Source of the DNA: Escherichia coli
Lineage (GTDB): Bacteria > Pseudomonadota > Gammaproteobacteria > Enterobacterales > Enterobacteriaceae
DNA length: 57,407 bases
Strand: one strand, 5' to 3'
Assembly: GCF_003334315.1 (NCBI RefSeq)
Contig: NZ_QOWR01000028.1
The position numbers and the translations under genes are program-made. This document shows, one piece after another, positions 1-34,165 of the stretch (its first letter is position 1; each line of letters starts with the position of its first letter). The notes below the pieces were generated by a model. That model searched no databases. It saw nothing but the letters and a program-made list of their open reading frames with translations, and was not told the origin of the DNA.

Positions 1-108
1 GTAGCGCGGTGGTCCCACCTGACCCCATGCCGAACTCAGAAGTGAAACGCCGTAGCGCCGATGGTAGTGTGGGGTCTCCCCATGCGAGAGTAGGGAACTG
101 CCAGGCAT
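1..108 (+). rRNA. rrfD: 5S ribosomal RNA, 5'-truncated by window edge (first ~12 nt missing)
   Basis: Sequence identical to the second complete 5S copy at 234-353 from its 13th base onward; ends in ...GGGAACTGCCAGGCAT. Confidence 0.95.
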
Positions 109-120
109 CAAATTTAGCGT

Positions 121-196
121 GCTGATATGGCTCAGTTGGTAGAGCGCACCCTTGGTAAGGGTGAGGTCCCCAGTTCGACTCTGGGTATCAGCACCA
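121..196 (+). tRNA. thrV: tRNA-Thr (GGT anticodon context CUUGGUAAG), 76 nt with encoded CCA
   Basis: GCTGATATGGCTCAGTTGGTAGAGCGCACCCTTGGTAAGGGTGAGGTCCCCAGTTCGACTCTGGGTATCAGCACCA: cloverleaf with GGT anticodon and T-loop GTTCGACTC; sits between two 5S genes as in rrnD. Confidence 0.95.
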
Positions 197-233
197 CTTT
201 TTAGGTTAAAGTTCGGCAGATTAGAAAAGAATT

Positions 234-353
234 TGTCTGGCGGCAGTAGCGCGGTGGTCCCACCTGACCCCATGCCGAACTCAGAAGTGAAACGCCGTAG
301 CGCCGATGGTAGTGTGGGGTCTCCCCATGCGAGAGTAGGGAACTGCCAGGCAT
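234..353 (+). rRNA. rrfF: 5S ribosomal RNA, complete 120 nt
   Basis: TGTCTGGCGGCAGTAGCGCGGTGGTCCCACCTGACCCCATGCCGAACTCAGAAGTG...GGGAACTGCCAGGCAT canonical enterobacterial 5S. Confidence 0.96.
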
Positions 354-31382: not shown

Positions 31383-31615
31383 GAACATAACCGTAGGTCG
31401 GATAGGGCGTTCACGCCGCATCCGGCAGCCGTTGCCTGATGCGACGCTGTGCGTCTTATCAGGCCTACAAACGGAACATAACCGTAGGTCGGATAAGGCG
31501 TTTACGCCGCATCCGACAGCCGTTGCCTGATGCGACGCTGTGCGTCTTATCAGGCCTACAAACCGGAACATAACCGTAGGCTGGATAGGGCGTTCACGCC
31601 GCATCCGGCAGCCGT
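31383..31615. repeat. BIME: tandem array of REP (palindromic unit) elements, about 2.5 copies of a ~91-bp composite
   Basis: AACATAACCGTAGGTCGGATAGGGCGTTCACGCCGCATCCGGCAGCCGTTGCCTGATGCGACGCTGTGCGTCTTATCAGGCCTACAAACGG repeated at 31383, 31474 and 31565 (last truncated). Confidence 0.92.
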
Positions 31616-31641: not shown

Positions 31642-33102
<1,461 letters not shown>

Positions 33103-33152
33103 TAATTTCACTATTTTCAGAAGGATAATTAATCTTTCTACGTGCACGAACG

Positions 33153-33195
33153 GTCCCCTCGCCCCTTTGGGGAGAGGGTTAGGGTGAGGGGAACC
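33153..33195. repeat. GC-rich imperfect palindromic intergenic element (possibly Box C-like)
   Basis: CCCCTCGCCCCTTTGGGGAGAGGGTTAGGGTGAGGGGAACC between convergent tldD and aaeR; related motif at 51015-51050. Confidence 0.5.
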
Positions 33196-33235
33196 CGTTG
33201 GCACAGGTTTGAACAACGTAACAGTACAATATGAA

Positions 33236-34165
33236 TTACTTCTCTTTCCCGCGCCCATGCATCTCCTGAAACAATTTACCGACCTCAACAAAATAATCCG
33301 TCAGCGAGTTGATCACGACCTGTACCTTCAGCGGCAGTTTATCTTTTTCGGTATACAACGCATAAACCGGGCGTGGATCTGACTGGTAACGCGGCAGCAG
33401 GATCTCCAGCTCCCCACGATTGATCTCGTTGATCACCCACATCAGCGGCACGTAGGCGATCCCGGCACCCGCCGTCAGCCAGCGCACCAGCGTCATCGGA
33501 TCATTAGTCACAAATCTTCCTTGTGGGATCAGGCGAGTCGAGATCCCTTCCGGTGCGATCAGTTCAAATTCATTGTCGGGCCGCACGCTGTATTCAAGCC
33601 ATGAATGACTACTCAAATCGGCGGGTTTTTCCGGTATGCCGTATTGTGTGAGATAGCTTTTCGCGGCGCACACCACCATCGGCATCGCGCCCAGACGGCG
33701 GGAAAACAGGCTGGAATCCTGCAACGCGCCGACGCGGATTACCACATCCAGACCATCGGCAATCAGGTCGGGGGCAGGAATTCCGGTAACCAGATTGACG
33801 CTCAAACCTGGGTATTCTTTCAGCATTTTTGCTGTCAGCCCGGCGAGAACATTTTGTGCCATAGTTGAAGAACAGCCAATGCGCAGCGTCCCGATGGGGG
33901 TGTTATTGAAGGCATACAGTTGCTCATGAACATCCTGCACTTCATGGAGCATCCGACGGCAGCCCTGGTAGTAAATTCTGCCGGCTTCAGTCAGACCAAT
34001 GCTGCGTGTACTACGGTTTAACAGCTTTACCTGCAACTCATCTTCCAGTTTTGACACCGTCTGACTGATGGACGAAACGCTCATCTGTAGCTGTCTGGCG
34101 GCGGCGGTAAAAGAGCCAAATTCAACTACTTTGGCAAACACCGACATGCGTTTTAGTCGTTCCAT
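33236..34165 (-). CDS. aaeR: LysR-family transcriptional activator of aaeXAB
   Basis: 309 aa; N-terminal LysR HTH (FTAAARQLQMSVSSISQTVSKLE); divergent from aaeXAB. Confidence 0.95.
   Translation of the reverse strand: MERLKRMSVFAKVVEFGSFTAAARQLQMSVSSISQTVSKLEDELQVKLLNRSTRSIGLTEAGRIYYQGCRRMLHEVQDVHEQLYAFNNTPIGTLRIGCSSTMAQNVLAGLTAKMLKEYPGLSVNLVTGIPAPDLIADGLDVVIRVGALQDSSLFSRRLGAMPMVVCAAKSYLTQYGIPEKPADLSSHSWLEYSVRPDNEFELIAPEGISTRLIPQGRFVTNDPMTLVRWLTAGAGIAYVPLMWVINEINRGELEILLPRYQSDPRPVYALYTEKDKLPLKVQVVINSLTDYFVEVGKLFQEMHGRGKEK

Follow-up and report, generated by a model that had tools for sequence, protein, structure and literature searches.

The tldD–aaeR Spacer and Its Palindromic Element

The window considered here, a stretch of 57,407 nt from an Escherichia coli genome (contig NZ_QOWR01000028.1 of assembly GCF_003334315.1), contains the convergent genes tldD (31657–33102, plus strand, an ORF of 481 aa) and aaeR (33236–34165, minus strand, an ORF of 309 aa), which bear these names in the RefSeq annotation of every complete E. 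coli genome. The spacer between the two stop codons is 133 bp long and harbors the intergenic element under study. Its core, CCCCTCGCCCCTTTGGGGAGAGGGTTAGGGTGAGGGG, occupies positions 33155–33191 (37 nt) and has a G+C content of 70%, compared with 23 and 32% in the remaining left and right parts of the spacer, respectively, and 51% in the whole window. To the left the core is rich in C, and to the right it is rich in G and consists of purines only, the skew being of opposite sign in the C block (−0.8) and in the G-rich half (+1.0). The first-pass annotation described this sequence as GC-skewed, self-complementary, and unlike its AT-rich surroundings, and both the composition and the folding of the entire 63-nt unit (see below) bear out this description. 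The range assigned to it, 33153–33195, does include the quoted string, but carries two surplus bases on the 5′ side and four on the 3′ side of the 37-nt core.

Four parts can be distinguished within the core, all given here on the plus strand. The C block CCCTCGCCC (33156–33164) is a possible Watson–Crick partner for either of two G blocks. The first G block, GGGAGAGGG (33170–33178), pairs with it in a short hairpin with one G·A mismatch. It is followed by a TTA loop (33179–33181), which defines type A of the family discussed below, and by the second G block, GGGTGAGGG (33182–33190), the third strand of a proposed triplex. Between them, the two G blocks contain four G3 tracts, as required for a G-quadruplex, and this motif (33169–33191) is the sole four-tract G3+N1-7 motif in the 57-kb window.

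The end motifs of the core, CCCCTCGC and GGGTGAGGGG, were previously noted to recur in an element close to nanA, and they are indeed common to the core and to the nanA-proximal element at 51019–51047. The pattern CCCCTC-N8-30-GAGGGG has two matches in the window, at 33155 and 51019, whereas 0.02 are expected, and two or more matches were found in none of 100 shuffled sequences. The palindrome is confirmed and is more than a chance feature.

Identity of the Element

Box C, a name given in 1992 by Bergler et al. to a sequence downstream of envM/fabI, is the motif that was later called the PIT element (Hoyne et al., 2000) and TMECO (Holder, 2015; PMC4666352). The equation of Box C with TMECO rests on Holder (2015; PMC4666352) and on the fabI copy, and the fabI–ycjD copy is among the 23 copies from E. 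coli MG1655 that we aligned with the window copy. Comparison with the TMECO consensus, CCCTCNCCC-N3-6-GGGNGAGGG-N3-GGGNGAGGG (PMC4666352), yields a single exact three-block match in the window, at 33156–33190, with 0 expected. The TTA sequence of the second loop assigns this copy to type A, and a G opposite A in the first stem assigns it to the subtype “A mm,” with one mismatched triplet. The window 36-mer is identical to MG1655 TMECO nos. 7, 11, and 15 and differs from the TMECO control oligonucleotide (Holder, 2015; PMC4666352) by the four G-to-C changes of that oligonucleotide alone.

The orthologous copy of MG1655 has been catalogued as well. Table 1 of Holder lists 23 MG1655 copies, of which no. 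14 is located at 3,390,529–3,390,494 (PMC4666352). In NC_000913.3, aaeR ends at 3,390,449 and tldD at 3,390,583, and the element at 3390494–3390529 (minus strand) has the coordinates of TMECO no. 14. In Table 1 of Kaplan (2016) the entry HPGQ 37 reads aaeR 45, midpoint 3390505 (−), 67 tldD (PMC5100583). The locus is thus present in two published catalogs (Holder, 2015, PMC4666352; Kaplan, 2016, PMC5100583), and the finding is a known one. In the region of the element, the window is 100% identical to strains such as ATCC 8739 and L73 and 99.2% identical to K-12. TMECO no. 14 of MG1655 has GGGTGAGGG as its middle block, while the window strain has GGGAGAGGG, a difference of one base. With respect to HPG1 (Kaplan, 2016; PMC5100583), the window copy is canonical, containing the exact 21-mer GGGAGAGGGTTAGGGTGAGGG preceded by a C-rich block, whereas the MG1655 copy is among the 3 of 16 members that are one base off this 21-mer (PMC5100583).

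A 65-bp query with the element at its center matched all 5426 of 5426 complete E. coli genomes, at a median of 17 places per genome (range 2–33), and the element is therefore a dispersed repeat. All 23 MG1655 consensus copies were recovered at their published coordinates. The original GenBank record of E. coli K-12 contains 33 BoxC features of 51–59 bp (PMC5172473), to which the unit described here (a 63-nt palindrome, with homology over about 70 nt) is close in length. Like Box C in general, the window copy is GC-rich, palindromic, intergenic, and dispersed, with no difference of substance. It is virtually certain that the element is an ordinary Box C copy, i.e., a TMECO of type A, a PIT element, and a member of HPG1. 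The earlier suggestion of a dispersed small repeat, possibly Box C, to be tested against published consensus sequences, is accordingly upheld by the exact consensus match, the median of 17 places per genome, and the catalogued MG1655 ortholog. The reverse case, a motif unique to two loci and without any family consensus, is contradicted by the multiple copies and by the match to the Box C consensus.

Other repeat families were considered. The RSA repeat was rejected by length, its unit being about 150 bp (150/151 bp, six copies in K-12; PMC5172473) vs. homology of about 70 bp here. A scan of the whole window with Rfam models at gathering thresholds assigned no family to 33142–33204; matches elsewhere were to 5S rRNA, tRNA, and two copies of naRNA4 (CssrE, a REP-derived nucleoid-associated RNA). 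The naRNA4 copies are arranged in tandem in the yhdP–tldD spacer (31396–31465 and 31487–31556, plus strand) and score 71 and 77 bits, compared with a gathering score of 59.5, so that a second, different repeat family is present one gene away from the Box C copy. An identity with REP/BIME elements was rejected, as these hits are confined to 31396–31556, with none at 33142–33204, and as the element is unlike the REP units of Citrobacter and Salmonella. At the beginning of the window (1–351, plus strand), a 5S rRNA gene cut by the window start, a tRNA gene (121–193), and a second 5S rRNA gene (236–351) lie together as the distal part of an rrn operon whose 5S gene is duplicated.

Family Anatomy Beyond the Core

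Alignment of 15 type A copies of MG1655 with the window copy revealed homology outside the 36-nt core. The 5′ flank of type A copies approximates cAAAAAnnGYGCWCGnaCgGTC and the 3′ flank is GAACAGgCCnGCAC. In the tldD–aaeR copy the flanks are complementary, the outer arms GTGC/GCAC and ACGG/CCGT pairing around the core, and hence the whole unit is an imperfect palindrome of 63 nt (33142–33204, plus strand), consisting of GTGCACGAACGGTC, the core, and AACCCGTTGGCAC. This full Box C unit begins 39 nt downstream of the 3′ end of tldD, and the stop codon of aaeR lies 31 nt beyond it. A profile HMM built from the 23 MG1655 copies (nhmmer) aligned to 33136–33208 with a score of 62.8 bits (E = 6.5e-19). 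No variation was seen in the core stem among the 16 type A sequences, so that covariation says nothing there. The outer stem is paired in approximately one-half of the copies, and two-sided changes are no more frequent in it than in shuffled controls.

The flanking sequences of type B copies are not those of type A: TTTTCY (5′) precedes the core and CATCAGCGCGCAC (3′) follows it. The two types also occur joined in inverted orientation as composites of about 100 bp, with a linker that shares homology with the sequence 3′ of the core in solitary A copies. These A/B composites of Box C are reminiscent of the mosaic BIMEs. REP/BIME elements, too, are short, GC-rich, imperfect palindromes present in multiple copies in 3′ intergenic spacers, often between convergent genes. 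They have no sequence similarity to Box C, for which neither a RAYT-like gene nor any other recurrent linked gene was found. REP sequences number several hundred copies, compared with some 20–30 for Box C.

Folding and the Absence of Terminator Features

Folded as DNA, the 63-nt unit has a predicted free energy of −16.3 kcal/mol on the plus strand and −15.3 kcal/mol on the minus strand (z about −2.7), and the whole spacer, folded as RNA, reaches −42.6 and −40.1 kcal/mol, respectively. All folds of the spacer also contain an AT-rich stem-loop just upstream of the Box C unit, AGAAGGAT-AATTA-ATCTTTCT (33119–33139, plus strand), which is conserved in eight aligned E. coli strains.

As the sole strong stem-loop between two convergent genes, the element could be taken for an intrinsic terminator that serves tldD and aaeR specifically, acts in both directions, and has no more than a likeness to a repeat. 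We regard this as highly improbable. No terminator-like site was called on either strand of the tldD–aaeR spacer, and the stem is not followed by a T/U run, the adjacent sequence being AACCCGTTGG on the plus strand and ACCGTTCGTG on the minus strand. Moreover, the same sequence with its flanks is found at about 17 other places per genome, and PIT elements have no terminator activity (PMC4666352). A gene-specific terminator is essentially excluded, in accordance with the first-pass annotation, which preferred a repeat family to such a terminator. The window should be annotated with a Box C (TMECO/HPG1) repeat at this position rather than with a terminator of tldD or aaeR.

Allelic Variation Within Escherichia coli

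In an alignment of the spacer from eight strains, the flanks are conserved and the variation is concentrated in the element. A 6-bp deletion is present in strains ETEC4088, 3-72, ECE228, and GON1437, and a 12-bp deletion in ST131; both are in the register of the GGGNNN hexamers of the G-rich half, and point changes occur in the C block as well. A larger sample of 59 chromosomes, evenly spaced over the ranked hits from 5426 genomes and measured by alignment coordinates, comprised 23 full-length alleles, 30 alleles shorter by 6–7 bp, and 6 shorter by 12 bp. Thus, the three-block element is kept in about 40% of E. coli as represented by this sample, and most strains, having shortened alleles at tldD–aaeR, no longer fit the TMECO consensus. 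We infer that the short alleles were derived from the long one via replication slippage, because all other members of the family have three blocks.

The deletions, found in approximately 60% of the sampled chromosomes, remove the third block and with it the potential for both triplex and G-quadruplex formation, but the hairpin is kept. The alleles with 6-bp and 12-bp deletions retain three and two G3 tracts, respectively, and no G-quadruplex motif. Their predicted DNA folds (−15.4 and −15.9 kcal/mol) are close to that of the full allele (−16.3 kcal/mol), and the RNA folds of the whole spacer are −39.5 and −48.2 kcal/mol vs. −42.6 kcal/mol. Alleles with a hairpin and no triplex or G-quadruplex potential therefore predominate in E. 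coli, which means that any function at tldD–aaeR cannot depend on the third block.

These data bear on a reading proposed by Holder (2015; PMC4666352) and Kaplan (2016; PMC5100583), in which the DNA of the element would switch its structure among duplex, hairpin, intrastrand purine triplex, and G-quadruplex forms and, by stalling polymerases, bring about gene regulation or local rearrangement. None of the three blocks or the four G3 tracts is missing from the window allele. In vitro, CD and NMR have demonstrated triplex formation by oligonucleotides of the family, which adopt either a G-quadruplex or a hairpin form according to the cation (PMC4666352, PMC5100583), and PIT elements stall DNA polymerase in vitro (PMC4666352). 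Variability between strains is greater at TMECO loci than at control loci (PMC4666352), and the tldD–aaeR locus is itself polymorphic. Still, we consider a switch of this kind unlikely here. With some 60% of the sampled chromosomes carrying alleles incapable of forming a triplex or a canonical G-quadruplex, no function that requires these structures is maintained at tldD–aaeR. The observed variation is hexamer slippage inside the element, with flanks and genes intact, and the “instability” may simply be gain and loss of repeats. Finally, DMS footprinting detected no triplex in vivo and no effect on expression was found (PMC4666352).

The Same Spacer in Other Genera

The aaeR–tldD loci of other Enterobacteriaceae were retrieved via homologs of AaeR. 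The gene order (aaeB-aaeA-aaeX, aaeR, tldD, yhdP) is conserved, and the content of the spacer differs. Spacers of 45 bp in Pseudescherichia, 43 bp in Kosakonia, and 40 bp in Cronobacter each contain their own, unrelated GC hairpin. REP-type palindromes were found in the spacers of Salmonella (122–136 bp) and Citrobacter (86 bp), and the 28-bp spacer of Trabulsiella is devoid of a notable hairpin. The 49-bp spacer of Enterobacter cloacae, CCCCTCACCCTAACCCTCTCCCCAACGGGGAGAGGGG in the tldD-to-aaeR direction, contains a Box C core of type A that is inverted relative to that of E. coli and lacks flanks of the E. coli type. Since the content of the spacer differs among the genera, the E. coli Box C copy is a lineage-specific acquisition; Box C has entered the spacer twice, and REP elements have entered it too, each independently. 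The parts of the E. coli spacer outside the repeat have no recognizable homolog in the other genera, and the outgroups do not resolve the boundaries of the insertion.

All the examined spacers of at least 40 nt contain a strong stem-loop, with predicted energies from −20 to −52 kcal/mol and z-scores from −2.6 to −5.8. Such a pattern is what one might expect if the stem-loop were a functional 3′ element similar to REP, either protecting the tldD and aaeR mRNAs from 3′-to-5′ exonucleases or separating the two convergent transcription units as a barrier; in that case several hairpin cassettes could do the job interchangeably, Box C being one of them. In favor of this possibility, a GC-rich hairpin occurs in each genus with a sufficiently long spacer whatever the sequence family, the deletion alleles of E. 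coli retain it, and the tldD–aaeR spacer contains no other terminator-like structure. The genomic context of the family also points this way. Of 18 MG1655 loci, seven are situated between convergent genes and two between divergent genes. The background frequency of convergent gene pairs is assumed to be 15–20%, and against it the enrichment of 7/18 has p of about 0.01–0.05.

The opposing observations lead us to hold this explanation, the strongest of the rivals, as no more than tentative. Hoyne and Maher (2002), as summarized in PMC4666352, observed neither terminator activity nor an effect on RNA polymerase. There is no U tract past the stem on either strand, and Trabulsiella manages with a 28-bp spacer lacking a notable hairpin. 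Furthermore, the survival of a hairpin after an in-register deletion is equally a prediction of simple inheritance.

The nanA–nanT Element

The element near nanA, said in the first-pass annotation to share the end signature, is a hairpin, CCCCTCGCTCGCCCCTACCGGGTGAGGGG (51019–51047, plus strand), in the nanA–nanT spacer. It resembles Box C, but has two blocks only. It shares the end motifs; on the other hand, it has a single G block and fails the three-block consensus, is not multicopy, and gives only a partial match to the family profile, at 51038–51066 (the last block and the 3′ flank), with 13 bits and E = 0.0023. Its 5′ flank, TTTTC, resembles those of type B.

The nanA–nanT spacer is present as a single copy per genome (5409 genomes). 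Its length is within 1 bp in 39 of 40 sampled records, the outlier having 216 bp vs. 228–231 bp and 93.5% identity, and no full-length Box C allele was found at this place across E. coli in these 40 records. The hairpin has a predicted DNA folding energy of −12.7 kcal/mol (z = −3.65). Its position is within the nanATEK operon, and no T run follows it. To judge from its sequence, the element may at most be a decayed, type-B-like Box C relic with the middle block lost, and not a consensus member. It is evidence neither for nor against the family assignment of the tldD–aaeR element.

Distribution and Mobility of the Family

The full consensus, in which 27 bases are specified, was found at no less than 120 loci in at least 16 metagenome-assembled genomes (MAGs) among species-representative genomes. 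Among the matches listed, multicopy MAGs belong to Chloroflexota, Planctomycetota, Melainabacteria, and Alpha-, Beta-, and Gammaproteobacteria, and single copies are present in a Dehalococcoidia MAG and a Patescibacteria MAG. The taxa represented among these matches are Anaerolineales, Dehalococcoidia, Planctomycetota, Melainabacteria, Moraniibacteriota, Hyphomicrobiaceae, and Pelagibius, as well as Hydrogenophaga, Ottowia, Burkholderiaceae, Azonexus, Competibacteraceae, and Sedimenticola. The number of copies per genome among the matches listed varies from many in several MAGs to one to three in others; copies within a genome are often identical (e.g., 14 identical copies in an Anaerolineales MAG), the TTA loop recurs across phyla, and inverted pairs occur as in E. 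coli. These matches in distant phyla agree with Holder (2015; PMC4666352), who reported more than 260 genomes with the motif. The earlier designation of the family as enterobacterial is consequently too narrow, the consensus being multicopy in distant phyla too, while its status as a dispersed repeat, Box C, stands.

The 65-bp Box C query also matched 457 of 72,556 plasmid records, some of which are Mb-sized and probably mis-filed chromosomes; 95 of the 457 are conjugative. The matching records come from Klebsiella (113), Rhizobium (79), Sinorhizobium (61), Azospirillum (44), Aeromonas (31), and others. This qualifies the statement that the motif does not occur on plasmids (Holder, 2015; PMC4666352). 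Among 50,697 phage records there were three hits, two of them in the Campylobacter phage records MG065686.1 and MG065691.1. The former (139897–142339, “UNVERIFIED: Campylobacter phage A18a”) was rejected as a phage-borne copy: a stretch of 1,051 bp surrounding the Box C match is 100% identical to E. coli pstA–pstB, which indicates contaminating or misassembled E. coli DNA. The match in MG065691.1 is of the same kind.

A search for a mobilizing gene covered the clustered ORFs within 2.5 kb of 133 copies in the 16 MAGs and yielded no transposase-like candidate near the motif. The only recurrent ORF families were ABC ATPases, two-component systems, acyl-CoA dehydrogenases, and a methyltransferase. 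By stop-to-stop ORFs, 91 of the 133 copies fall inside an ORF, a measure of no use in high-GC genomes. Overall, neither a mobilizing gene nor terminal repeats or a target duplication were identified for Box C.

The multicopy occurrence in distant phyla, the 457 plasmid records, and the fact that E. coli and E. cloacae acquired Box C independently in the tldD–aaeR spacer, one inverted relative to the other, raise the possibility, which we advance with considerable reserve, that Box C is a pan-bacterial, horizontally spreading structured element that resembles REP/REPIN and homes to 3′ hairpin spacers. A core of 36 nt is conserved almost to the base in some 20–30 copies per E. coli genome and in distant phyla as well.

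Possible Role at tldD–aaeR

Taken as a whole, the locus is very probably best explained as a Box C copy in the 3′ spacer of two convergent genes. On the narrower matter of function, we lean, with modest confidence, toward selfish or near-neutral hairpin-forming repeats that lodge in 3′ spacers. The hairpin appears to be the only property kept across E. coli at tldD–aaeR, the third block being dispensable and decaying by slippage. A regulator specific to tldD or aaeR is not favored, and most likely the copy has no locus-specific function. In line with this, neither promoter activity nor an effect in vivo was seen with PIT elements (PMC4666352).

A plausible course of events can be outlined as follows. 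The Box C copy would be non-coding DNA, present mostly as a duplex. When a strand is exposed, in a transcript of tldD or aaeR or during replication, the C block would pair with one of the G blocks and, with the outer arms paired as well, a GC-rich stem-loop of some 60 nt would result. The G block left over could enter an intrastrand triplex or a G-quadruplex, as it does in vitro, a capacity apparently not maintained at tldD–aaeR. The G-rich half, being a run of GGGNNN hexamers, would be prone to slippage with a loss of 6 or 12 bp in most E. coli lineages, and the hairpin would survive. Both convergent transcripts would gain a 3′ stem-loop incidentally.

Three observations speak against a selfish or near-neutral repeat. 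Firstly, the extreme conservation of the core among copies, both in E. coli and in distant phyla, is not easily explained by neutrality and points either to recent amplification by some mechanism or to selection on the sequence. Secondly, the search described above identified neither a mobilizing gene nor terminal repeats or a target duplication. Thirdly, given a strong hairpin in every spacer of at least 40 nt, the hairpin itself could be functional. The allelic variation within E. coli and the occupancy of the Enterobacter spacer in the opposite orientation add small new constraints on function and spread, and the natural alleles of the tldD–aaeR element constitute a ready-made allelic series.
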